Shown here: in pieces, positions 1,147-12,636 of the stretch
How the letters are laid out: each line of letters opens with the position of its first letter
Position numbering within the stretch: the stretch's first letter is position 1
Source: Thainema sp.
GTDB taxonomy: Bacteria > Cyanobacteriota > Cyanobacteriia > Phormidesmidales > Phormidesmidaceae
Assembly: GCA_052168235.1 (NCBI GenBank)
Contig: JBQLZK010000071.1
Location: forward strand, 1-31,172
Direction of reading: 5' to 3'
DNA length: 31,172 nt
Translations under genes and position numbers: made by a program
Notes under the pieces: generated by a model
Told to the model about the DNA's origin: nothing
Seen by the model: the letters and a program-made list of their open reading frames with translations, nothing else
The model's database searches: none

Positions 1147-1212
1147 ATGCAGCCGTCAATTCATTTGACTACCACCACTACGACCCAAACCACCCATCTG
1201 GGAGGGCTGTAG
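1147..1212 (+). CDS. Thr-rich leader peptide 1, MQPSIHLTTTTTTQTTHLGGL (21 aa, 8 Thr)
   Basis: ATG...TAG ORF with mixed Thr codons (ACT/ACC/ACG). Its last codons (GGGAGGGCTGT) are complementary to the 5' arm of the downstream terminator. Confidence 0.85.
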   Translation: MQPSIHLTTTTTTQTTHLGGL

Positions 1213-1243
1213 GTGCTGCGCTAGAATTGCAAGCTTACCGTTG

Positions 1244-1284
1244 AAACGGCCCTCCTGATCACCATCGGGAGGGCTGTTTGTTTT
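1244..1284 (+). terminator. Attenuator terminator 1
   Basis: AAACGGCCCTCCTGAT-CACC-ATCGGGAGGGCTGTTT forms a 16-bp stem (2 G-U) followed by GTTTT. Confidence 0.85.
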
Positions 1285-1292
1285 AGGTACGT

Positions 1293-1518
1293 AGCCCTCA
1301 CCCCCAGCCCCTCTCCCACGGGAGCTACTGTTTATATATAAGTCTCCTAGACTTCGCTTCGAGGTTGAGATCCCCCCTAGCCCCCCTTAAAAAGGGGGGA
1401 ATTGACTCAAAGTTCCCCCTTTTTAAGGGGGATTTAGGGGGATCAGTCCGGGATTTAGAAGGACTTTCAGAATGTGTATAAACAGTAGCTCCCGTGGGAG
1501 AGGGCTAGGGTGAGGGCT
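1293..1518. repeat. Nested palindromic dispersed repeat (REP/MITE-like)
   Basis: ~47-bp terminal inverted repeats (AGCCCTCACCC...CTCTCCCACGGGAGCTACTGTTTATA / TATAAACAGTAGCTCCCGTGGGAGAGGG...GGGTGAGGGCT) enclose an inner GATCCCCC..CCCCCTTAAAAAGGGGG..CCCCCTTTTTAAGGGGG..GGGGGATC palindrome (~1368-1444). Confidence 0.85.
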
Positions 1519-1545
1519 TTCCGAGTAATGTTACTTTCTAAACCA

Positions 1546-1602
1546 ATGTTCAGAATTACAACCACTACGACGACTACCACTACCACGCCGGGAGGGACGT
1601 GA
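1546..1602 (+). CDS. Thr-rich leader peptide 2, MFRITTTTTTTTTTPGGT (18 aa, 11 Thr; alternative in-frame ATG at 1528)
   Basis: Ten consecutive Thr codons using all four ACN codons. The ORF ends GGAGGGACG-TGA, complementary to CGCCCCTC in terminator 2. Confidence 0.88.
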   Translation: MFRITTTTTTTTTTPGGT

Positions 1603-1632
1603 CGATTGCGGCTGCCAAAACGCATTTAATTC

Positions 1633-1668
1633 GCCCCTCAAGTGCTCTTGGAGGGGTTTTTGTTATTT
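1633..1668 (+). terminator. Attenuator terminator 2
   Basis: GCCCCTCAAG-TGCT-CTTGGAGGGGT hairpin (one bulge) followed by TTTTTGTTATTT. Confidence 0.8.
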
Positions 1669-1715
1669 CAAATTAGCCTGCCATTGACTCATATCAAGTC
1701 TGTGTATAAGAACCC

Positions 1716-1768
1716 GATTTATTTTTTATGAAACGTTTGCTCTGCAAACGTTTCATAAAAAATAAATC
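1716..1768. repeat. Perfect 25-bp AT-rich inverted repeat in the thrS 5' region
   Basis: GATTTATTTTTTATGAAACGTTTGC-TCT-GCAAACGTTTCATAAAAAATAAATC. Confidence 0.9.
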
Positions 1769-1846
1769 ATGGGTTTTCAACAAGACTTCATATCACATTA
1801 ATTTCGTTAATTTACCCACTCATTCATCCACTAAAGGAGAACTCAA

Positions 1847-3058
1847 ATGGCTGACCATCGCGATTTCGCAAGAGATATGGATTTGTTTCACTTTGAAGAA
1901 CACAGCCCCGGCATGGTGTTCTGGCATCCCCAGGGCTGGCAGCTTTTCCGTAATGTTGAAGACTTCATGCGCCAAGAGTATCAGCATCATGGCTTTGACG
2001 AAGTGCGATCGCCCGTTGCCCTGAGCCGATCGCTGTGGCTGCGATCGCAACATTGGCAGAAGTTCCGCAATGGTATGTTTGTCGTGGGCAGTGCTGAATC
2101 TGAAGCACCAGAGGTGGACGCGGCAGTGGCTGTAGCAGAACCCGACTATGCGCTGAAGCCGATGTCCTGTCCAGCTCATATCGCCATTTTTCAGGCCCAT
2201 AAACGCAGCTATCGGCAGTTGCCCATGCGACTGATGGAGTTTGGCATGTGTCACCGCAATGAGCTATCGGGAACGCTGTCGGGCTGTATGCGGCTGCGGC
2301 AGTTTGTCCAGGATGATGCCCATATTTTTTGCCAGCCGGGGGATGTGCCCCAGGAAATTCAGCGCTTTCTGAGCATGGTGCAGCGGGTCTATCGGGCGTT
2401 TGGCTATGAGCGATTTTCGCTACAAGTGTCCCTGCGACCTGCCCAGCGCTTGGGTTCAGATGAACTGTGGGATCGAGCAGAGAACATTCTAATTGAGGCG
2501 GTGCAGTTGCTCCAGATGGACTTTGAGCTGGCTCCAGGGGAAGGCGCATTTTATGGGCCAAAGCTGGAAATTGCTTTGCACGATCATCTCGGTCGCTCTT
2601 GGCAGTGCGGTACGTTTCAGGTCGATTTCAATATGCCGCGTTTGTTTGACCTCTCGTTTGTCAATGCCGCAGGCGAGCTAGAGCAGCCAATTATGCTGCA
2701 CCAAGCGGTTTTGGGTTCCCTCGAACGCTGGATCGGTATTCTGCTGGAGCACCATGACGGAATTCTGCCGCTCTGGTTGGCTCCCACTCAAATTGCCGTC
2801 GCGCCCATTTCGGATAAATCCGCAGACTGGGCCGAAGCGATTTTCCAGCGACTCAAACAGCGCGGTATCCGAGTTGAAATGTGTGATCGCAATGGCACAA
2901 TCGGCAAGAAAATCCGCGATTTATCCCGCCGCCGCGTCCCGCTCATCGCCATTGTGGGCGAACAGGAAAGCGAACAGCAAACGCTCAATCTGCGGCGATT
3001 AGGAGAAAACAAGCAGGAGGAGATATCGCTAATTGAATTGGAAAATCGGTTGAGATGA
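1847..3058 (+). CDS. thrS: Threonine--tRNA ligase, short form (catalytic and anticodon-binding domains only; no TGS/editing domain)
   Basis: Starts at DHR..DLF. Motifs KPMSCPAH, HRNELSG..MRLRQFVQDDAHIF, GEGAFYGPK, QCGT.Q.DF and HQAVLGSLERWIG, plus a C-terminal anticodon domain. SD AAGGAGA upstream. Confidence 0.95.
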   Translation: MADHRDFARDMDLFHFEEHSPGMVFWHPQGWQLFRNVEDFMRQEYQHHGFDEVRSPVALSRSLWLRSQHWQKFRNGMFVVGSAESEAPEVDAAVAVAEPDYALKPMSCPAHIAIFQAHKRSYRQLPMRLMEFGMCHRNELSGTLSGCMRLRQFVQDDAHIFCQPGDVPQEIQRFLSMVQRVYRAFGYERFSLQVSLRPAQRLGSDELWDRAENILIEAVQLLQMDFELAPGEGAFYGPKLEIALHDHLGRSWQCGTFQVDFNMPRLFDLSFVNAAGELEQPIMLHQAVLGSLERWIGILLEHHDGILPLWLAPTQIAVAPISDKSADWAEAIFQRLKQRGIRVEMCDRNGTIGKKIRDLSRRRVPLIAIVGEQESEQQTLNLRRLGENKQEEISLIELENRLR

Positions 3059-3154: not shown

Positions 3155-3946
3155 GTGGGCAAGGAAGTATATCGTTTAAATAAGCGTCGAAAGACTCTTG
3201 AAAAACTTCGCGAGTATTGGGAGCATCAAGAAAACATTCTCGTAGTTCATTATTCCTGCGAAAGCTTTCATGATAAATCTAACGATTCCACCTCAAGAAT
3301 TACTTCGATCGCTGTCAGAAACTTTGCTTCAGGTCAAACTGAATCATTTTCAATTCATAAGATTGCAGAACTGGAGAAACTTTCGAGTAATCAGATTGTT
3401 AATAACTATGATGAACTTGAACGAAAGATGCTGGATGAATTCTTCCAGTTTCTTTTAGAAAATCAGCGTTGCACATGGGTACATTGGAACATGAGAGATA
3501 TTAACTATGGATTTCAAGCACTTGAACATCGATATAAAGTTCTTGGTGGTCTTCCCACTCATCTAGGCGAAGATAGAAAACTTGACCTTTCTCGCACCTT
3601 AATCAACATCTATGGCAACAACTATATTGATCATCCTAGGCTTGGCAAGCTGATGGAAAAGAATAGGATTTCATCCATCAGCTTTTTATATGGAAAAGAT
3701 GAGGCCAAAGCCTTTGAGGCAAGAGAATTCGTTAAGCTCCATCAGTCAACTCTACGCAAAGTAAATGTAATTGCCAGTATCTTGGAAAGGACTTTACAAG
3801 ATGACTTAAAAACAAATGCAAAGTGGCATCAAACTCATGGCATCCATCCTAGAGCATTAGTTGAAATCATCACTGAAAATTGGATATGGAGCTTGGTTAC
3901 TATGACAGCCACTATCATCGGAATTACAAAATTCTTTTTAATGTGA
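3155..3946 (+). CDS. Hypothetical protein, possible degenerate 3'-5' exonuclease (RNase H-like) fold with C-terminal TM helix
   Basis: 263-aa AT-rich ORF. ERKMLDEFF and VHWNMRDINYGF resemble exonuclease-domain motifs; hydrophobic C-terminus WIWSLVTMTATIIGITKFFLM. Confidence 0.6.
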   Translation: MGKEVYRLNKRRKTLEKLREYWEHQENILVVHYSCESFHDKSNDSTSRITSIAVRNFASGQTESFSIHKIAELEKLSSNQIVNNYDELERKMLDEFFQFLLENQRCTWVHWNMRDINYGFQALEHRYKVLGGLPTHLGEDRKLDLSRTLINIYGNNYIDHPRLGKLMEKNRISSISFLYGKDEAKAFEAREFVKLHQSTLRKVNVIASILERTLQDDLKTNAKWHQTHGIHPRALVEIITENWIWSLVTMTATIIGITKFFLM

Positions 3947-4072: not shown

Positions 4073-4639
4073 TGAGTAAGTGTTAGTTAAACGACGCTTG
4101 CCGCCAATAGAGATATTAAAAAATAAGCTGTGGATAATGCTTGATTGATCTAAGTCAGTTTGGGTGATGGGCATTGGCCGAATAAATCAAATGCTAAAGA
4201 TTGGATTTTGATTTATCCAATGTTGCCCTAGATTTTGCATACAACCATTTAGATACTTGCATTTTACACTGATCTTTCAGAGGTTATTTGTTACCATAAT
4301 GCAGCGACAAATAATTCTTCTGGTTTCTGATTGGTGGAGTGCCAGCTGTGAGGATTACAATATTAAGCGAATAGCCTCAAGCATTGATAAACTGGAGCTG
4401 CAATGGTGTAGCCCCAGTTGGTGTTGAGGGCACGCTGTCATCTACTGTGCAACCACCTCACTTAACCTGTAATCGTTGTTAACCCAAGGCCGTAACCTGT
4501 ATTCACAATTTGTGCAGAGCATAGATTTGAGAGATAAGGTGAAAATAAGAGAAAAGTAATAGAGCTTTGGCGTTTATTACTGGCAACGATGATTTATGAT
4601 TGCTGCACGATTGACCCTTGGCGATCAGGTGACTCCCTC

Positions 4640-7408
4640 ATGAAGATTCTATTGGTTGAGGATGACGCGCAGATTGGACAGTTTCTATCCGCAACGCTAA
4701 CCACTCATCGCTACGCTGTAGATGTGGTGGCGGATGGTCAAACAGGTCTGGATTTGGCGATTGAGCGGGATTACGACGTGATCTTGCTCGATGTCCTGTT
4801 GCCCAAGCTGAATGGTATTGAAGTGTGCCGCACGTTACGACAGTACGGACGAACGACCCCAATTTTAATGTTGACGGGCAAAGGCACCAATGAAGATGTG
4901 GTCATGGGGCTAGATGCGGGCGCAGATGATTATGTCGTCAAACCCTGCGATCCCGCTCGGTTGCTAGCGCGGATTCGGGCGCTCTTGCGGCGTCAGGAGG
5001 CTACGTCATCGCTCATTCTCAGTTGGGGTGATCTACAGCTCGACTTAACGCTGATTCAAGCGACCTATCGTCAGCAAACGATTGCACTGAGCCCCAAGGA
5101 ATATAGCCTGCTGGAGCTGTTTTTGCGGCATCCCCAGCGCATTTTCAGCCGCAGCAACATTATTGATCGGCTCTGGTCAATTGATGACTCACCGACGGAT
5201 GCAGCTGTCACCAATTTAATTAAAGATCTACGGCGACGGCTGCGATCGGCAGGCATTGAGGAAGAAATGATCGAAACGGTCTACCGTTTGGGCTATCGGC
5301 TAAAAGCGCCACCCTCGAAAGCTGATTCGGCTGCTTCACCTACGAGCGACACCGCCGGTTCGGCGAACTCGCCGTCTTCGCCAGCGACTCCCGCGCCGCA
5401 ATCACCTGAACCAGCAGATGCGCTAGTGGCTGATTCATTAGCGGAACGGCAGCGGGCTGATGCGTTGAATCAAACTGTTTCATCTGTTCCGTTGAACCAG
5501 TCGGCTCTGTATCAATCCGAATTTAGTTCACAATCTAGTCCAGTATCAGAGTCAGGGGCTAGCCCAGACCAGGCCAAGCAAGAAGGACTGCTACTGCTGC
5601 AGCAAGCGATACAGGATTTTCGGGCGTCGCTGCCGAGTCGGATGCAGAGCTTAGAGACTGCCATCCAGCAGCTGCAAATCCAACTAGGGGAGGATCAGTT
5701 CGCTGACCCCGTGTCAGACCCGGCATCAGACCAGACATTAGACCAGACATCAGCAGACCAGGCATCAGATGCAAGTGATTCTTGGTCAGCTTTGGTTTTA
5801 ATTGTGGCTCAGATTCGGGATCAGGCGCATCGACTAGCGGGCGGACTGGGCACATTTGGCTATACCAAAGCGGGGCAGTTGGCACAGACAATTGAGCAAA
5901 TGCTGGATGCGTGGCTCAATGCTGGCTCAGCGGATGGAGACAGAGATGAGGCTGGGGATACAACGGCTCGTCGTCAAGCCATTCAGCAACTGGTTAATCC
6001 GATTACTACTCTGCTAGCTGACTTAAAACAAGCGACGGTGAGCGACCCAGAAACGCCGATGATTTCTATGCCGGAGGTTGCGGTCGATGCTCTCCCGATG
6101 TCCCAGCTATCGATTGTCGTGATGGATGATGATCATTCATTTACTCAACTGCTCCAGCAGATTGCGCTGCTGCGGAATGCTGAGGTTGATGTGGTGCTTG
6201 ATGAGTCGGGTTTGTGGCAGCGGTTGCAGGCCCAGGTGCCCAGTGTTCTGCTGTTGAGCTTGAACATTGAGGGGATGTCTCATGCATTACTGGACTTACT
6301 GGAGCAGGTCACGGAGCGCTATCCGGATCTGCCAGTGTTGGCATTAGCCGAGACCGATCAATTGCGCGATCGCATGTTGGTGACGCAAAAGGGGGGACGG
6401 GGCTATATTCTCAAGTCAGCTACGCTGGATGAGGTATTTGAAGCGATTCTGCTGGCGCTGCCCGCTACTCAGATGGGAGCCAAAGTTTTATTAGTGGATG
6501 ATGACTCCATCATGCTGAGCACCCTGGCGGCGCTACTTGAACCCCAGCGCTTGAACTTGACTACCCTCTCTAATCCGGCTCAGTTCTGGCAGGTGCTGAC
6601 GCAGATTCAGCCGGAGGTGCTGCTGTTGGATTTAGAAATGCCTCAATTTAACGGTTTGGAGCTGTGTCGGGTGGTGCGGCAGGATGCTCGCTATCGCAAT
6701 TTACCCATCCTGGTTGTCACAGCCTATACGGATGAAGACCGCTTGCAGAAGGCATTTGCGGCAGGGGCAGACGACTTTATTCGCAAGCCCGTTGAGCCCA
6801 AAGACTTTGTGATGCGGGTGCTGCGCCAAATCGAGAAAATGCGCCATCAGCGGCAGCAGCAGCAGCTGCAGCACCAGCAGCTTCAGACGTGGTACAACCA
6901 GGCGCGACAGGACACCTTAACGCGGGTGGCCAATCGTCGCTATTTTGATGAATTTTTGGCTCAGACTTGGCAGCAGTGTCAGCATCAGCAGATGTTTGTT
7001 TCGCTGATTTTGGCGGATGTCGATTTGTTCAAAGCCTACAACGACGCGCATGGACATGTGGCGGGCGATCAGTGTCTGCAGCAGATTGCCCGTGTGCTGC
7101 AGGACTGTGTGCAGTCGCGCCAAGATCTAGTGGCTCGCTATGGTGGAGAGGAATTTGCAGTCATTTTACCGGAGACGAATTTGAATGGTGCGCTACAGGT
7201 GGCCGAGCGGATTCGAGCTGCGATCGCAGATTTAAAGATTCGTCATCCTGATTCTCCAGTGAGTGACTATGTCACACTAAGCTTAGGGATTACTGGAGTT
7301 ATACCGTCCGATCGCCATTCGCCGCATGATCTAATTGCGATCGCAGATCAAGCTCTCTATGCTGCAAAAAAACGCGGTCGCAATACCTATTGCCTCTACC
7401 CGCTCTAG
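4640..7408 (+). CDS. Multidomain response regulator/diguanylate cyclase: REC-wHTH-Hpt-REC(pseudo)-REC-GGDEF
   Basis: MKILLVEDD REC; OmpR-type wHTH (LSPKEY..IETVYRLGYRL); Hpt AHRLAGGLG; REC LLVDDD..LLDLEMP; DTLTRVANRR..RYGGEEF. Confidence 0.92.
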   Translation: MKILLVEDDAQIGQFLSATLTTHRYAVDVVADGQTGLDLAIERDYDVILLDVLLPKLNGIEVCRTLRQYGRTTPILMLTGKGTNEDVVMGLDAGADDYVVKPCDPARLLARIRALLRRQEATSSLILSWGDLQLDLTLIQATYRQQTIALSPKEYSLLELFLRHPQRIFSRSNIIDRLWSIDDSPTDAAVTNLIKDLRRRLRSAGIEEEMIETVYRLGYRLKAPPSKADSAASPTSDTAGSANSPSSPATPAPQSPEPADALVADSLAERQRADALNQTVSSVPLNQSALYQSEFSSQSSPVSESGASPDQAKQEGLLLLQQAIQDFRASLPSRMQSLETAIQQLQIQLGEDQFADPVSDPASDQTLDQTSADQASDASDSWSALVLIVAQIRDQAHRLAGGLGTFGYTKAGQLAQTIEQMLDAWLNAGSADGDRDEAGDTTARRQAIQQLVNPITTLLADLKQATVSDPETPMISMPEVAVDALPMSQLSIVVMDDDHSFTQLLQQIALLRNAEVDVVLDESGLWQRLQAQVPSVLLLSLNIEGMSHALLDLLEQVTERYPDLPVLALAETDQLRDRMLVTQKGGRGYILKSATLDEVFEAILLALPATQMGAKVLLVDDDSIMLSTLAALLEPQRLNLTTLSNPAQFWQVLTQIQPEVLLLDLEMPQFNGLELCRVVRQDARYRNLPILVVTAYTDEDRLQKAFAAGADDFIRKPVEPKDFVMRVLRQIEKMRHQRQQQQLQHQQLQTWYNQARQDTLTRVANRRYFDEFLAQTWQQCQHQQMFVSLILADVDLFKAYNDAHGHVAGDQCLQQIARVLQDCVQSRQDLVARYGGEEFAVILPETNLNGALQVAERIRAAIADLKIRHPDSPVSDYVTLSLGITGVIPSDRHSPHDLIAIADQALYAAKKRGRNTYCLYPL

Positions 7409-7425
7409 CAGGTTTCAATGGCATC

Positions 7426-10400
7426 ATGAGCCAACCATCCAAGTTATTTCAGTCATTTAAGTCATCTAAACCGCCTGATTTTTCATCGAACAGACAAAAC
7501 TGGTTGGCCAAAATCCCGCTGCGAGTATTGCTGACGGTGCCCTTTGTGATTCAACTAGTCGGCGCAGTTGGCTTAGTTGGTTATTTGTCTTACCGCAGTG
7601 GCCAGCAATCAGTTGCAGATTTGGCGGATCATTTGGTTAAAGAGACGGGTGCGCGCGTTGCCCAAAAGCTCGATAGTTATCTACAAGGGGCACAACAGGT
7701 TAATCAAGCAAGTGTTGCAGCTTTGGAATCTGGCGCAATTCGCCTCGATGATCTCGACCAGCTTCATCGCTATCTGATCTTGCAGCATCGGCACTATCCA
7801 GACATTACCAGTTTTCACTTTGGCAATCCCAACGGTGATTTTCGGCTCATTCATCACTTGGAGCCGTCGGAAGTTGAAGCCGGGCTGACTCAGCTCCAAT
7901 CCACAGACTTACCGTTTGAAGCTGGACAGTCCGATCCAAATCTGCCCAGCCGCTTAAATCTATATGCCATTGATCAAAAAGGGAATCTAGGACGTTTTCT
8001 AGGGTCGCTTGACAACATTGATGTGCGAGAGCGCCCCTGGTATCGTCGCGCGGTTGAGACTAAGCAACCGGGCTGGAGCGAGCCGTTTCAAATTGGGGGG
8101 TCGAATCTGCTGGCCGTCAATGCCTATGCGCCTGCATATGACGCGACCCAGCAGCTACAGGGCGTATTTTCCGTCAATCTCAGTTTTGAGCGTTTGGATC
8201 AATTTCTGGAAACGCTCTCAGTGGGTGAAACTGGGCAGGTCTTTATCTTAGAAAAGAATGGCTTACTGCTGGCTAGTTCAGCCGAAGAACCGGAGTATCT
8301 TACCTCCAGATCTGAACCGTTAGAAACATCCAATGATGCTGCACCCGCGAATCAACCAGGAATCATCCAGTTTCAACGATTGGCGGCATCTGAAAGTTCA
8401 AATCCGCTCATTAAACATGCTGCCCAGCAGTTGAATTTTACCTTTAGTGATCTCAACGCAATTACGTCCACACAAAAGCTCACGTTTCGCGAACAAGGTA
8501 AGCTGCATTATCTTTGCGTGTTTCCGTATCAAGATGCGTATGGCTTGGATTGGCTAGTGGTGACGGTGGTGCCAGAAACTGATTTTATGGCTCAGATTCA
8601 TGCGAATCAGCGCCGAACGATTGGGTTATGCGTGTTGACCTTTGGGTTGGCGTTGGGAACGGGTCTATTAACGGCTCACTGGATTGCGGCTCCGATTCGG
8701 CGGTTACAGCAGGCGGCAGATGCGATCGCACGTGGGCAGTTTGATACACCAATTCCAATAGGTGGCGTTGGCGAAGTGGCTCAGTTAGCTGAGCAGTTTC
8801 AGCGGATGGCTTACCAGCTCAGCATCTTTTTTGAAACGGCTCAGGCGAGCGAGGAAAAATTTGCCAGCCTGCTCGATGATTTACCGATTGGGGTCAGTGT
8901 CCTAGATGCGTCGGGACAACGAGTCTACACGAATTGGGTGGGGCAACAGATGCTGGGGCACAATCTGGATCAAGGCTTACTGACGTTGTCGTTTAATCAG
9001 CTCCTGGATAGGTTTCCGGTCTATGTAGCCGGGACTCAAACCCTTTATCCCAGAGATCAGTTGCCGGTTGTGCGATCGCTACAGGGAGAGTCGGTGACGG
9101 CTGATGATATTGAGATTGAAATCAACGGTCAGCGCATCCCGCTGGAGGTACGAACCATTCCCATTTGGGATGAACAGGGGCAGGTGATTTATATCATCAA
9201 TGTGTTTCAGGATATTACTGAACGTCGTAAGGCGGCTCAGCTACAGGAGCGCTATCAGCGCGATCTGGAACAAGCCCTGGCGCATCAAGCGGAAGCCTTT
9301 TTGCAATCAGAAGCGCGATTTCGGTTTGCGGTGGATCAAATGCCGGATGTGTTTGCACTTTACGATGCGGAACGGCGGTTTCAGTTTGTCAATGCCCAGG
9401 GCATTGAGCAGAGTGGGTTAACTCTGGAGGATCACCTCGGTAAGCGAGATGAAGATCTGTATTCGCCAGAGGTGACGGATGCCTATTTGCCGCTGCTGAA
9501 AACTGCGATCGCAACTCGCTCCATTCAAACAGGGGAATGTACGATTACCTTACCGGATCGGGAACCATTTACCATCATCGTTAAATATGCCCCGCTGCTA
9601 GATAGTAAAGGCAATATTCAGCAAATTTTGGCTCTGACCTACGACATCACGTCGCGTAAACGAGCTGAACAGGCTCTCCAAGACAGTGAAGAGCGGTTCC
9701 GTCAAATTGCTGAAACGATTAACCAAGTTTTTATGGTTCGAGATGCCGACTCAGGTCAGTTTCTCTATATCAGTCCGGCCTATGAAAGCATTTGGGGCCG
9801 AAGCTGCCAGAGCCTGTATCAAGATCCAGAATCCTGGCTAGAGGCGATTCATCCAGACGATTTACCGATTGTGCAACAGTCGCTCCAGCAGCAGTTCAGT
9901 GGTCAACGCACCCACCGCGAATATCGAATTCAGCGTTCCGACGGTACGATTCGCTGGATTCGCGCGGCTATTTCAACTGTGCGAGATGAACAGGGCAATG
10001 TGGTGCGCCATGTCGGTCTGGCTGAAGATATCACTGAGCGTAAACAGGCTGAACTGGCGCTGCAATTCACGACTCAGCAGTTGCAGACATTTTTGAATAA
10101 TGCTCCGGTGATTATCAGCTTGTTTGATGCGGAAGGGCGTTATTTGCAGGTTAATCCAGCTTTTGCAGCCCTCCTTGATCGCTCAGCCGCCGATATTGTA
10201 GGTCAGAAATTTACTGATCTTCATCCTGCCGCTGTTGTCGATCGGTTTCACGCCCGCTTAAAGCAGATCATAGAGAGCGGTTTGCCGCTGCAAGTAGACG
10301 ATGAAATTGTCTTAGATGGCGAGGTTAAAACATTTCAGTCCATCCTGTTTCCGGTCATGGATGAGCAGGGTCTACCTAGCACCTTTTGGGCCATCTCAAC

Positions 10401-12636
10401 GGATATCAGCGATCGCAAACGAACGGAACAGGCTTTGCAGGAAAGCGAAGCCCGCCTTCAGCTGATTACCGATTCACTGCCTGGCTGTATTTCCTACATT
10501 GATGCATCGCAGCGCTATCAGTTTGTCAATCGAGTTTATGAACAGTGGTTTGACCTGCGTAGGGAAGATATTCTGGGCTGTACGGTGGAAGAGATCATTG
10601 GGACAGATGCGTATCAGGTGGTACGCCCTTATCTTGAACGAGCGCAAGCGGGCGAAACGGTAACATTTGAAAATGAATTGTCTGATCAGCCAGGAAAGCC
10701 GCGTTATCTATTTGGGGTTTTTGTGCCGGATCTGGATGCCGAAGGTAAGGTACGGGGAGTTTATGCTCTCATTACGGACATTAGCGATCGCAAGCAGTTT
10801 GAACTGGCGCTGCAAGAGGCGAATGCGCGGCAGCAGGCGATTTTGTCGGGCCTGCCTGATCTGATGTTTGTTGTTGATGCGAATGGCCTCCTATTGGAGA
10901 AAGTGACTCATCGCCCCCAACTGGATCTGTTTGTGCCGGGGGCTGGGAAAATCCAGGACTCAATTTTCTGTGTCGGGTCGCCCGAAAATATCGCCATGAA
11001 GCAGGCTGCCATCCAGCAGGTACTCACGTCTGGAATAACCTATGTCTATGAGCAGCAGGTGGAGCGGGACGGCAAAGCGTGGTATGAAGAAGTGCGCTGT
11101 GTGCCAATGCTGGGCAATCGAGTCCTGTTTATGATTCGTGATATTAGCGATCGCAAACAGGCGGAACTTTTACTTCAGGAAACAAATGCGCGGCAGCAGG
11201 CGATTTTGTCGGTCATGCCGGATCTGATGTACGTTGTGGCGATAGACGGCACGATTTTAGGTCAGGTTACGTTTCGGCCCAAGCGCGATCTATTCCCCGT
11301 TGACCAGTCGATTTCCGACGTCACGATTTTTGATGTTGGCCCACCTGAGATAAGTCGTCGCAAAATGCTGGCGCTGCGTACCGCACTGGCCACCCGAACC
11401 GTGCAGACCTATGAACAGCAGGTCGAAAAAGATGGTGAAACTTGGCACGAAGAAGTGCGCTGTGTGCCGATGCCAAGAGATCGGGTGCTGTTCATGTTCC
11501 GCGATATTAGCGATCGCAAACGGGCCGAGGAAGAACTGAAGCAAAGCGAAGATCGGTTCCGTAAAGCCTTTGACAATGCTCCTATCGGCATGGCGCTGGT
11601 GGCACCGATGACCGGGCGATTTCTGCGCGTCAATCGCGAGCTGCAGCAAATTTTGGGCTATTCCGAAGCGGAACTGCTCCAGCTTTCGTTTCAAGAGATT
11701 ACCCATGTCGATGATCTCAAAGCTGACCTTGACGGACGGCAGCGATTAATTATGGGTAACATTCGGCAATACCAAGTTCAAAAGCGATATATCCATAAGC
11801 AAGGACATATTGTGCGAGTCTTGCTGAGTTCATCGGTGGTGCGCGATCAGGCCGATGACCCGCTGTATTTTGTCACTCATATCTTGGACATCAGCGATCG
11901 CTACCGGATTGACCGGATGAAGGACGAATTTATTTCCATCGTCAGTCATGAACTGCGCACCCCGCTGACGGCAATTCGCGGCTCACTCGGTATTTTGGAA
12001 TCGGGCGTGCTCGATAATGAGCCGGATCAGATTCAAGCCATGCTGAAAATCGCCTCAAACAATAGCGAGCGGCTGGTGCGCTTAGTCAATGACATCTTAG
12101 ATTTAGAGCGGCTGGAATCCGGCAAAGTTGAACTGCTCATGCAAAAGTGTTCAGTTGCGGCGGTTATCCAGGATGCTATTGGAGCCGTCTCTGCGATCGC
12201 AGATGCCAACAGCATCACCCTCTCTGTTTCGCAGGTTGAAGCCAGTCTCTATGCCGCGCCAGATGCGATTGTGCAAACCCTAACCAATTTGCTGAGCAAT
12301 GCCATCAAGTTTTCCGACCCTGGCAGCACCGTCTGGCTAACGGCTGGCCCTGCGGCAGCGGCAATGCCTGATGTGACTAACCCTAGTGCGACCTATTGGC
12401 AATTCTCAGTCCGCGACCAAGGGCGAGGAATTCCGGTGGATAAACGAGATATAATCTTTCAGCGCTTTCAGCAGATTGATGTATCTGATGCGCGGCAAAA
12501 AGGTGGTACAGGTTTAGGCTTAACGATTTGCCAGACCATTATTCGGCAGCATGGCGGGCAAATTTGGATTGAGAGTGAAGTAGGCCAGGGTAGTATCTTT
12601 TGCTTTACAATCCCTTGCTGGAGGAACGAAGTGTGA
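7426..12636 (+). CDS. Membrane sensor histidine kinase: Cache-HAMP-multiple PAS/PAC-HisKA-HATPase
   Basis: Two TM segments, Cache RPWY motif, HAMP, about eight PAS/PAC units ending DI(T/S)xRK, SHELRTPLT, NLLSNAIKF, DQGRGI and GGTGLGL. Start at ATG 7426 preferred. Confidence 0.93.
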   Translation: MSQPSKLFQSFKSSKPPDFSSNRQNWLAKIPLRVLLTVPFVIQLVGAVGLVGYLSYRSGQQSVADLADHLVKETGARVAQKLDSYLQGAQQVNQASVAALESGAIRLDDLDQLHRYLILQHRHYPDITSFHFGNPNGDFRLIHHLEPSEVEAGLTQLQSTDLPFEAGQSDPNLPSRLNLYAIDQKGNLGRFLGSLDNIDVRERPWYRRAVETKQPGWSEPFQIGGSNLLAVNAYAPAYDATQQLQGVFSVNLSFERLDQFLETLSVGETGQVFILEKNGLLLASSAEEPEYLTSRSEPLETSNDAAPANQPGIIQFQRLAASESSNPLIKHAAQQLNFTFSDLNAITSTQKLTFREQGKLHYLCVFPYQDAYGLDWLVVTVVPETDFMAQIHANQRRTIGLCVLTFGLALGTGLLTAHWIAAPIRRLQQAADAIARGQFDTPIPIGGVGEVAQLAEQFQRMAYQLSIFFETAQASEEKFASLLDDLPIGVSVLDASGQRVYTNWVGQQMLGHNLDQGLLTLSFNQLLDRFPVYVAGTQTLYPRDQLPVVRSLQGESVTADDIEIEINGQRIPLEVRTIPIWDEQGQVIYIINVFQDITERRKAAQLQERYQRDLEQALAHQAEAFLQSEARFRFAVDQMPDVFALYDAERRFQFVNAQGIEQSGLTLEDHLGKRDEDLYSPEVTDAYLPLLKTAIATRSIQTGECTITLPDREPFTIIVKYAPLLDSKGNIQQILALTYDITSRKRAEQALQDSEERFRQIAETINQVFMVRDADSGQFLYISPAYESIWGRSCQSLYQDPESWLEAIHPDDLPIVQQSLQQQFSGQRTHREYRIQRSDGTIRWIRAAISTVRDEQGNVVRHVGLAEDITERKQAELALQFTTQQLQTFLNNAPVIISLFDAEGRYLQVNPAFAALLDRSAADIVGQKFTDLHPAAVVDRFHARLKQIIESGLPLQVDDEIVLDGEVKTFQSILFPVMDEQGLPSTFWAISTDISDRKRTEQALQESEARLQLITDSLPGCISYIDASQRYQFVNRVYEQWFDLRREDILGCTVEEIIGTDAYQVVRPYLERAQAGETVTFENELSDQPGKPRYLFGVFVPDLDAEGKVRGVYALITDISDRKQFELALQEANARQQAILSGLPDLMFVVDANGLLLEKVTHRPQLDLFVPGAGKIQDSIFCVGSPENIAMKQAAIQQVLTSGITYVYEQQVERDGKAWYEEVRCVPMLGNRVLFMIRDISDRKQAELLLQETNARQQAILSVMPDLMYVVAIDGTILGQVTFRPKRDLFPVDQSISDVTIFDVGPPEISRRKMLALRTALATRTVQTYEQQVEKDGETWHEEVRCVPMPRDRVLFMFRDISDRKRAEEELKQSEDRFRKAFDNAPIGMALVAPMTGRFLRVNRELQQILGYSEAELLQLSFQEITHVDDLKADLDGRQRLIMGNIRQYQVQKRYIHKQGHIVRVLLSSSVVRDQADDPLYFVTHILDISDRYRIDRMKDEFISIVSHELRTPLTAIRGSLGILESGVLDNEPDQIQAMLKIASNNSERLVRLVNDILDLERLESGKVELLMQKCSVAAVIQDAIGAVSAIADANSITLSVSQVEASLYAAPDAIVQTLTNLLSNAIKFSDPGSTVWLTAGPAAAAMPDVTNPSATYWQFSVRDQGRGIPVDKRDIIFQRFQQIDVSDARQKGGTGLGLTICQTIIRQHGGQIWIESEVGQGSIFCFTIPCWRNEV

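Follow-up and report, generated by a model that had tools for sequence, protein, structure and literature searches.

Why should the gene of a threonyl-tRNA synthetase (ThrRS) be preceded by a pair of small open reading frames (ORFs) crowded with threonine codons, each of them followed by a terminator-like hairpin? This question was raised by a stretch of 31,172 nucleotides (nt) from the cyanobacterium Thainema sp. (contig JBQLZK010000071.1 of a 7.54-Mb genome in 205 contigs), referred to below as the window, where such upstream ORFs (uORFs) stand in front of thrS, the gene of a short ThrRS. Our answer is that the thrS leader probably consists of two serial, ribosome-mediated (leader-peptide) transcription attenuators, which would read the charging of tRNA-Thr; a probability of roughly 0.8 was assigned to this reading. 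It starts from features that were observed directly, namely the anatomy of the leader, its conservation, its exclusive association with one gene, the covariation of its terminators and a codon-level constraint on the Thr run. A preliminary description of the locus had proposed such attenuators, and every sequence-level prediction of that proposal held and was found conserved in orthologs.

The elements of the leader all lie on the forward strand. A promoter-like site was read from the sequence at 1092-1120, with a -35 box TTGACA (1092-1097), a spacer of 16-17 nt and a -10-like TTTAAT/TTAATT (1114-1120); the -10 has no A at position 2, which is why the site was not listed by a consensus scanner. 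Leader ORF 1 (1147-1212) encodes MQPSIHLTTTTTTQTTHLGGL in 21 codons, of which 8 are Thr codons (ACT, ACC, ACG). Leader ORF 2 (1528-1602) encodes MLLSKPMFRITTTTTTTTTTPGGT in 24 codons, of which 11 are Thr codons (ACA, ACC, ACT, ACG), and ends in the C-terminus TTTTTTTTTTPGGT. For this second ORF the preliminary description had given the same end and a start at 1546, an internal ATG from which an 18-codon peptide, MFRITTTTTTTTTTPGGT, again with 11 Thr, would be read; the in-frame ATG at 1528 is the likelier start, because the N-terminus that it yields (MLLSKPMFRIT...) resembles the MLLxMPLA... of the ortholog leaders. The other claims on the leader, namely two Thr-rich uORFs with mixed synonymous Thr codons, a GGGAGGG shortly before each stop and complementary terminators at the given places, were confirmed by sequence and folding. 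The GGGAGGG motifs are located at 1200-1206 and 1590-1596, immediately 5' of the final sense codon and the stop, and the GGA GGG codons of both leaders are complementary to the CCCUCC/CCCCUC that forms the 5' arm of the next hairpin. The first hairpin, intrinsic terminator 1 (1244-1286), has a 16-base-pair (bp) stem at 1244-1279 followed by GTTTT and a U-rich tail, and the 150-nt fold that contains it gave z = -5.1. Intrinsic terminator 2 (1633-1667) was not picked up by a simple terminator scanner and was found by folding; its stem at 1633-1657 (GCCCCUCAAG...CUUGGAGGGGU) and its tail TTTTGTTATT amount to -13.7 kcal/mol. An inverted repeat identifies the putative antiterminator 5' strand of unit 1 at 1200-1210 (GGGAGGGCUGU), which pairs with 1246-1256 in the 5' arm of terminator 1, while that of unit 2 at 1591-1599 (GGAGGGACG) pairs with the 5' arm of terminator 2 in the minimum-free-energy fold of the full unit. 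In folds of truncated transcripts of the window, 11 pairs were formed by the first antiterminator and 8 by the second. A ribosome-binding region at 1833-1846 (AAAGGAGAACTCAA; its ortholog counterpart before the ATG is CAGGAGAAACTAAA) leads into thrS at 1847-3058.

These elements can be assembled into a model of the classical kind. Transcription would begin at the conserved TTGACA promoter, approximately 25-30 nt 5' of leader 1, and thrS would be monocistronic. In each unit, a ribosome would translate the 17-24-codon ORF with its central run of Thr codons; the GGA GGG codons, followed by one sense codon and the stop, would serve as the antiterminator 5' strand against the CCCUCC terminator arm approximately 30 nt past the stop. 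When Thr-tRNA is ample, the ribosome, its A site having reached the stop codon, would cover GGAGGG, which lies 3-8 nt 5' of the stop in the units, and would leave free the terminator arm, located 26-35 nt further on in most of them. The terminator would then fold, and the transcript would end near 1280-1286 or 1658-1667. When Thr-tRNA is scarce, the ribosome would stall in the Thr run at least approximately 15 nt upstream and leave GGAGGG exposed; this strand would capture CCCUCC before the 3' arm of the terminator is made, allowing RNA polymerase to read through. Two gates in series would multiply, so that basal expression would be low and the response steep. The predicted product is a third ThrRS of the cell, able to aminoacylate and without editing in cis, which would be made only when the resident charging fails. 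Candidate physiological roles are a plain backup, immunity to an inhibitor and tolerated mistranslation. Translation of the leaders, kinetic competition between the hairpins, the response to Thr and the role of the enzyme are the parts of this model that we infer.

The model would lead us to expect similar leaders in front of orthologous genes, and they were indeed found there, as the preliminary description had anticipated. Orthologs of the short ThrRS turned up in 13 out of 100 related genomes, and a 401-genome sample of the class contributed 9 more genomes; these orthologs show 68-92% identity in open frames of 406-487 amino acids (aa). The counts given below use 22 loci including the window, one locus that lacks upstream DNA being left out, and comprise 40 units in total. 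Unit 1 was present in 22/22 loci as a 17-23-codon ORF with 4-9 Thr and an end of the form GG-X-stop, followed by a hairpin and a T-rich tail. Unit 2 was present in 18/22 loci (13-22 codons as scored, 4-14 Thr) and ends in (P)GGT-TGA; GGAGGGACGTGA is identical in 15 of its 18 leaders and one base off in the other three, and the stop is TGA in all 18. The hairpin with its T-rich tail was recovered by our own scan in 40/40 units. The terminator follows the stop codon after 29-35 nt in 21 of the 22 unit-1 copies and after 18-40 nt in unit 2; a spacing of 72 nt listed for locus L091 arose because the script chose the second hairpin. A CTTGAC(A) box was observed 53-64 nt 5' of the leader-1 start in 21 of the 22 loci. 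The distance from the leader-2 stop to the ATG of thrS is 92-130 nt in most orthologs, as opposed to 244 nt in the window, and no conserved thrS promoter was found in these 92-130 nt. Since the conserved promoter precedes leader 1 only and the gap after unit 2 is short, thrS of these orthologs must be transcribed through both terminators. Across the loci, no conserved neighbouring genes were found except a cupin gene within the same genus and family. With its promoter only before leader 1, little room after unit 2 and no conserved neighbours, the unit is self-contained.

The four loci without an intact second unit fall into two kinds. Loci L089 and L091 retain the second terminator and have no second uORF, so that one Thr leader is followed by two terminators (1401-1470 in each). 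In both, terminator 1 has a 3' arm (CUGGGGGG) complementary to the 5' arm (CCCCUCCAG) of terminator 2, and a single stalled ribosome might therefore relieve both terminators by a relay. In loci L116 and L118, which belong to one genus, the second unit has decayed while the first is intact. The decayed stretches (approximately 1278-1460 in the reverse-oriented L116 and 1292-1460 in L118) show a Thr-rich ORF out of register, a weak hairpin and a mutated form of GGAGGGACGTGA, namely AGGAGACGTGG or AGAGAACGTGA. A further ORF was noticed in unit 2 of the window, where a GTG overlapping the leader-2 stop (ACGTGA) starts a 25-codon frame at 1599-1676 that crosses terminator 2. The block GGAGGGACGTGACG is near-invariant in orthologs, beyond what pairing alone seems to require.

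Two constraints of different nature were recognized within the leader ORFs. Over the 40 units, Thr is encoded by ACC 156 times, by ACT 72 times, by ACG 49 times and by ACA 21 times, and the third position of the Thr-rich codons exhibited an entropy of 1.1-1.2 bits as compared with 0.5-0.7 bits at positions 1 and 2. Such a three-base periodic constraint is the signature of a translated sequence and gives indirect support to translation of the Thr run. In contrast, GGA GGG showed no change at any position in 39/40 units. Its constraint hence appears to act on the RNA and not on the peptide, since it is without synonymous change while the Thr codons vary. This bears on the idea that the Thr-rich ORFs are small genes of their own, whose products function as peptides or as precursors of modified ones, and that the hairpins are the terminators of these genes rather than regulators of thrS. 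Some conservation does extend beyond the Thr run (MKAAIALTT...HLGGS in leader 1, MLLTMPLAMN... in leader 2), and the GG motif near the C-terminus recalls double-glycine peptides. Selection on a peptide, however, requires neither the fixation of GGA GGG at the nucleotide level nor its complementarity to the terminator arm; a single residue follows GG, which leaves no core peptide; the units occur, in the sequences scanned, solely before the short thrS, with no conserved maturation genes nearby; and thrS has no conserved promoter of its own after unit 2. Peptides as the true products were hence judged extremely improbable.

The pairings required by attenuation were examined in alignments, which comprise 22 sequences for terminator 1. 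In that stem, 92.7% of the cells are paired, two-sided changes affect 6 of 13 pairs, and the covariation score was reached by 0/500 shuffles; in terminator 2 these values are 87.9%, 4 of 12 pairs and 11/500 shuffles. These data support covariation of the stems of both terminators. The alternative structure was examined in transcripts cut before the terminator 3' arm, where the leader tail paired with the 5' arm in 24/24 units, using 5-13 pairs. In the alignments, antiterminator 1 is paired in 85.9% of the cells (38-61% when the partner is slid) with 2 of 15 pairs changed on both sides, and its core GGAGGG:CCCUCC, which shows no variation, can form in 21-22 of 22 sequences. Antiterminator 2 is paired in 83.0% of the cells (36-52% when slid), and 6 of its 19 pairs changed on both sides, with 10/500 shuffles scoring as high; these two-sided changes are all located in an inner hairpin and none in the core. 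A third pairing, corresponding to the "1:2" hairpin of classical leaders, was proposed by RNAalifold for unit 2 at 1584-1601 (CACGCC / GG.ACGUG, 6 bp). It is paired in 96.3% of the cells (19-37% when slid), with 0 of 6 pairs changed on both sides and 500/500 shuffles as high, and this candidate would keep the antiterminator strand occupied in the absence of a stalled ribosome. A convincing candidate for it was not found in unit 1.

The conserved inner hairpins also invite a different thought, namely that the leader is controlled by binding of a protein or a tRNA without any ribosome stalling, either by ThrRS recognizing a mimic of the anticodon arm, as for thrS of E. coli, or by uncharged tRNA in the manner of a T-box. 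The enzyme has retained its anticodon-binding domain, and both antiterminator loops contain such a hairpin with two-sided changes. Its loop of approximately 4 nt (ACAU-like) is, however, not a 7-nt anticodon loop, and in-frame Thr runs with three-base periodic constraint would be left unexplained. An Rfam cmscan of positions 900-2000 with E up to 10 matched neither a T-box nor any leader family, that of the thr operon included, and T-boxes were reported in 0 of the 13 cyanobacterial genomes covered by one survey (PMC2494555). Control by direct binding was hence regarded as very improbable. The microRNA and small RNA (sRNA) matches that Rfam returned in the same region sit on two repeat hairpins and were judged spurious.

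A number of observations weigh against the attenuator reading and are gathered here. A clear Shine-Dalgarno sequence is absent before either leader. Within the window, the 133-nt fold of unit 2 is no better than its shuffles (z = -0.56), and the antiterminator of that unit is short, with 5 core pairs. The unit-1 tails are T-poor in two loci, L085 (TATTTGCTG) and L097 (TAATTGTTG). Covariation of antiterminator 1 is no better than that of shuffles, of which 412/500 scored as high; because the six core pairs are invariant, covariation neither supports nor refutes the antiterminator. In equilibrium folds with a ribosome parked on the early Thr codons, the probability of the terminator was lowered in no more than 1 of the 13 unit-1 copies and 5 of the 11 unit-2 copies. 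The terminator is thus favoured at equilibrium, which speaks against a simple equilibrium switch, and the switch must therefore be kinetic and co-transcriptional. In three unit-2 copies, on the other hand, the free RNA favours the antiterminator; untranslated transcripts of these copies would therefore be expected to read through, unlike those of the trp leader. The two repeat insertions of the window that are described below might also alter regulation, for example by adding a promoter or a processing site. Finally, all 6 sequencing runs listed as matching the locus are DNA-type metagenomes, with no RNA run among them.

How exclusively the units belong to the short thrS was evaluated with two patterns. 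A compound motif of at least three ACN codons, followed within 36 nt by GGAGGG-NNN-stop, matched twice in the 7.54-Mb genome, and both matches are those of the thrS leader. A longer pattern (Thr run, GGAGGG-NNN-stop and CCCTC) was scanned over the 401 cyanobacterial genomes and matched 19 of them, including all 14 that carry a short thrS, where each match lies directly upstream of that gene. Genome G021 has both units at a contig edge, and four other genomes gave single, chance-like matches, near the rate of a reversed control pattern (approximately 24 scattered single matches in 21 genomes, counted from the table). On metagenome contigs, the unit-2 pattern gave 49 matches. A Thr-run uORF together with a T tail marked 11 of them as true units: a short thrS follows in 7 cases and a disrupted remnant of it in 2, and the remaining 2 are ended by the contig edge. 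Apart from the copies at contig edges, the element was not found elsewhere than before the short thrS or its remnants in the own genome, the 401 genomes and the metagenome contigs. The leader units are intact at both remnants: at L133 (approximately 1724-1830) repeat-rich DNA breaks off the gene after 33 codons and leads on to other ORFs, and at L139 (approximately 1702-1780) it is truncated after approximately 8 codons. A rough scan of the own genome for amino-acid-run uORFs beside terminators yielded 44 candidates, none of which resembles the Thr leaders. Two of them were inspected and rejected as false, one lying within an ABC-transporter gene and the other on a repeat.

A further question is what the attenuators would sense. 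They might be real and respond to general translation stress, such as a slowing of ribosomes by antibiotics, instead of Thr, or the attenuated RNAs of approximately 130 nt might act mainly in trans as sRNAs. Precedents for both are reported, namely the attenuator-derived sRNA rnTrpL of Sinorhizobium (PMC6614838) and uORFs that sense ribosome-targeting drugs (PMC12121999). Against such functions stand the Thr run itself (4-14 Thr per leader), which besides GG is the only peptide feature kept in all 40 units, and the identity of the regulated gene as a Thr-specific synthetase. We hence take a signal other than Thr, or a main action in trans, to be improbable. Genes for tRNA-Thr with anticodons UGU (two), CGU and GGU were identified in the genome, and since all of these are encoded, the mixed Thr codons of the leaders sample every tRNA-Thr isoacceptor and would report the total ThrRS activity. 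One tRNA-Thr(UGU) gene on contig C99 was numbered as the 19th tRNA there by ARAGORN, indicating a large tRNA gene array.

What kind of enzyme is placed under this control? The thrS product is a 403-aa protein composed of a class II catalytic core and an anticodon-binding domain; its Pfam content is tRNA-synt_2b and HGTP_anticodon only, and its match to TIGR00418 (464 bits, cut-off 384) covers profile positions 171-562 of 565. No match to the TGS/N1 and N2 editing (tRNA_SAD) domains was obtained for it, unlike for both full-length paralogs. Its residue 1 aligns with residue 242 of Escherichia coli ThrRS (span 242-609), where the 242-642 crystal fragment of that enzyme also starts, and MADHR is the common starting motif of 23/23 short orthologs. 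The zinc-ligand motifs MSCPAH, QDDAHIF and MLHQA are retained, with the Cys, His and His aligned to those of E. coli. The HQA adjoining the third zinc ligand is found in 23/23 short ThrRS, as compared with HRA in 37 of 42 other ThrRS. An insertion of 15-20 variable acidic residues (approximately residues 80-101; 2084-2150 in the window) after a conserved GMFVVGS is specific to the clade and absent from E. coli-type and full-length cyanobacterial ThrRS. The same genome encodes two full-length ThrRS with an editing domain, which makes the short one the third copy. An editing-less and auxiliary ThrRS, as claimed in the preliminary description, is therefore borne out on both counts.

The preliminary description had also named zinc loss among the conditions that would turn the gene on, along with starvation or an inhibitor. 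Zinc loss now appears a less specific trigger than claimed, because a separate full-length ThrRS (623 aa; contig C119, locus L123, 4193-7882) is encoded directly after a 127-aa FUR-family regulator and adjoins metal genes. The genes next to it comprise a divergent ALAD (hemB-like) gene, the gene of a DUF3299/NicO metal-transport protein and ABC-transporter genes. This cluster looks like a zinc-starvation cluster similar to that of Anabaena T2.

The distribution and phylogeny of the short ThrRS indicate a separate class. Among the best 120 database matches, 115 are 391-455 aa long and 63-91% identical, and every organism name attached to them is cyanobacterial, the named organisms including Leptolyngbya, Nodosilinea, Acaryochloris (with A. 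marina), Moorena, Scytonema (with S. hofmannii PCC 7110), Calothrix and Nostoc; at least 115 sequence clusters are annotated merely as "threonine--tRNA ligase". A tree was built from 65 sequences, including 23 short and 18 full-length cyanobacterial ThrRS and an outgroup of full-length proteobacterial ThrRS (44-50% identical) drawn from at least 80 matches. The 23 short ThrRS form one clade (SH-aLRT 100) outside the clade of the 18 full-length cyanobacterial ThrRS (100), while the placement of the short clade relative to Proteobacteria has a support of 33, at a point where long branches come together. Within the short clade, members of the genome families f1, f10, f16 and f31 alternate, and the gene is present in 14 of the 401 sampled genomes. 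This interleaving, the patchy distribution and the existence of decayed copies suggest that the short thrS moves laterally. The short thrS of L117 (genome G220) and of L121 (genome G327) each contain one in-frame TAG, which could reflect a pseudogene or a sequencing error.

Such a distribution can also be read as that of a resistance gene. In this alternative the switch is the same and its purpose differs: the short ThrRS would provide inducible immunity or resistance to natural ThrRS inhibitors of the borrelidin or obafluorin kind, produced by neighbours or by the cell itself. The inhibitor would block the housekeeping ThrRS, uncharged tRNA-Thr would stall the leader ribosomes, and a resistant copy would be turned on. 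An accessory gene with a patchy occurrence, no conserved neighbours, interleaved families and decayed copies shows features typical of a mobile, conditionally useful gene. The differences fixed in the clade close to the active site (HQA for HRA, MSCPAH and the variable 15-20-aa insertion) fit a role in resistance, and a second ThrRS copy serving as a self-resistance gene is documented for ObaO (PMC11252418). The same report describes replacement of Gly463 (E. coli numbering) by Ser or Ala as giving resistance to obafluorin and borrelidin in ObaO and in E. coli mutants (PMC11252418). This replacement is, however, absent from the short clade, where Gly is kept in 22/23 proteins and Ala occurs in L097 alone. 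Moreover, no biosynthetic cluster was seen in the 31-kb window, the loci have no neighbours in common, and no evidence at hand links an inhibitor of cyanobacterial ThrRS to the carrier organisms. Immunity as the purpose of the switch is hence conceivable and, on balance, unlikely.

A broader proposal keeps the attenuator reading and adds to it. The promoter, the two Thr attenuators and the editing-less ThrRS may together constitute a self-contained and horizontally moving emergency cassette of cyanobacteria, which senses charging and stays silent until tRNA-Thr charging collapses; its enzyme would then either resist a natural ThrRS inhibitor or trade accuracy for continued translation. We put this forward tentatively, as a speculation that we would rather doubt than defend. 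In the version that trades accuracy, Ser-for-Thr mischarging would be allowed, or the cell would rely on trans-editing by the subunits of its resident ThrRS. If the cassette proposal were true, it would provide the first well-supported leader-peptide attenuation in cyanobacteria, as well as direct evidence of a cyanobacterial transcription-translation coupling that is tight enough for attenuator switches.

How does the proposed device compare with known ones? The classical leader-peptide attenuators of enterobacteria are those of the trp, his, thr and pheA operons, with pheST of E. coli as the case of an aminoacyl-tRNA synthetase. With the thrS leader as modelled here they share a small ORF containing many cognate codons, a choice between an antiterminator and a terminator hairpin, the position of an intrinsic terminator ahead of the structural gene, and masking of the antiterminator strand by a ribosome at the stop codon. 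The thrS leader differs in its phylum, in having no sequence or Rfam relationship to them and in the arrangement of two complete units in series. Furthermore, its antiterminator strand is drawn from the last sense codons GGA GGG and not from the sequence past the stop, and an upstream 1:2 hairpin is a candidate in unit 2 only. The logic of the locus also resembles that of thrZ of Bacillus, although ThrZ is of full length, unlike the editing-less enzyme described here. This backup gene is preceded by 2 or 3 adjacent T-boxes, as surveyed in PMC2494555. In both cases an auxiliary ThrRS would be silenced by serial terminators, each of them relieved as tRNA-Thr charging drops, while the sensor would be a ribosome translating Thr codons here and is the binding of uncharged tRNA there. 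The tandem design appears to be a ribosome-based counterpart of the thrZ T-boxes, and by this analogy the same control logic would have arisen independently in two lineages.

A leader with two short ORFs is also known from mgtCBR of Salmonella, where mgtM and mgtP sense different signals (ATP and proline charging) and work without classical intrinsic terminators. They have been described as tandem attenuators, each ORF governing a choice of stem-loops and transcription into the coding region (PMC3641672). Both units of the thrS leader, in contrast, share one codon signal, and each has its own terminator. For synthetase genes, uORF attenuators were predicted in Streptomyces lividans for thrL-thrS, alaS, trpS and leuS, of which thrL contains only two Thr and has no clear terminator according to its authors (PMC8079986), and a cysS uORF motif was reported in Rhodobacterales (PMC8632094). 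These resemble the present case in placing a leader peptide with cognate codons upstream of the matching synthetase gene. They are, however, single and stand before housekeeping genes, whereas here 4-14 Thr per leader, clear terminators and tandem units precede an accessory, truncated enzyme.

Extra ThrRS copies have been studied in a cyanobacterium before. Anabaena sp. PCC 7120 is reported to have the duplicated ThrRS T1 and T2, the latter a full-length enzyme that low zinc induces; T2-deltaN, an engineered form, is devoid of editing activity, and T1 subunits are documented to edit in trans (PMC4787780). What Anabaena and the present organism have in common is a further ThrRS of weak or absent editing, which would serve under stress. 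Unlike T2, the short ThrRS is naturally truncated at its N-terminus, predicted to be controlled by attenuators and placed in a clade outside the full-length cyanobacterial ThrRS, and the copy with a zinc-related context is a separate full-length gene on contig C119 and not in the window. The domains of the short ThrRS are the same as those of the E. coli 242-642 crystal fragment, which is a laboratory truncation. Crenarchaeal catalytic-only ThrRS likewise consist of the catalytic core and the anticodon-binding domain, and for the archaeal type a separate editing protein exists according to a work cited in PMC4787780.

From Proteobacteria and Actinobacteria, leader-peptide attenuation is known as a textbook mechanism. 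A survey of 2016 came upon no reliable evidence of it in cyanobacteria (PMC4833913). A prior description of the elements reported here was not found in the literature searched; comparative studies of proteobacterial attenuators in subscription journals could hold predictions. The mechanism is of a known kind, and what appears to be new is the phylum, the tandem of complete leader-peptide attenuators for the same signal, the use of the last sense codons as the antiterminator strand, and the accessory ThrRS without proofreading as the target. A conserved family of such attenuators would show that cyanobacteria couple tRNA charging to transcription via the ribosome, and it would offer cyanobacterial synthetic biology a compact sensor of natural origin for the charging of Thr-tRNA. 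It also points to an uncharacterised and widespread third class of cyanobacterial ThrRS, whose lack of proofreading raises questions of fidelity under stress and of resistance to natural inhibitors.

The long spacers of the window remain to be accounted for, and by comparison with a related locus they are two repeat insertions that lie outside the conserved device. The first, between unit 1 and leader 2, is an inverted-repeat element resembling a miniature inverted-repeat transposable element (1287-1525), with perfect 28-nt arms at 1309-1336 and 1477-1504 and small terminator-like hairpins at 1311-1324 and 1489-1502; it gave 87 BLAST high-scoring segment pairs (HSPs) of 90-99% identity on the contigs of the own genome. 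The second (1688-1796), between terminator 2 and the thrS ribosome-binding site, is a different palindromic dispersed repeat that likewise resembles such an element; it forms an AT-rich, near-perfect hairpin of approximately 100 nt with 50-nt arms (z = -11.8) and gave 136 HSPs of approximately 89-99% identity in the genome. The same-genus ortholog at L085 is without both repeats, and the distance from its leader-1 stop to thrS is 292 nt as compared with 634 nt in the window. Directly 3' of thrS, a 263-aa ORF (3155-3946) matches nothing in Pfam or NCBIfam and is not kept beside thrS elsewhere. Further downstream, the region 4589-12636 encodes a 939-aa protein that combines three receiver domains with a winged-helix output, an Hpt and a GGDEF domain, and contains an overlapping second gene for a 1748-aa Cache-HAMP-multi-PAS histidine kinase.

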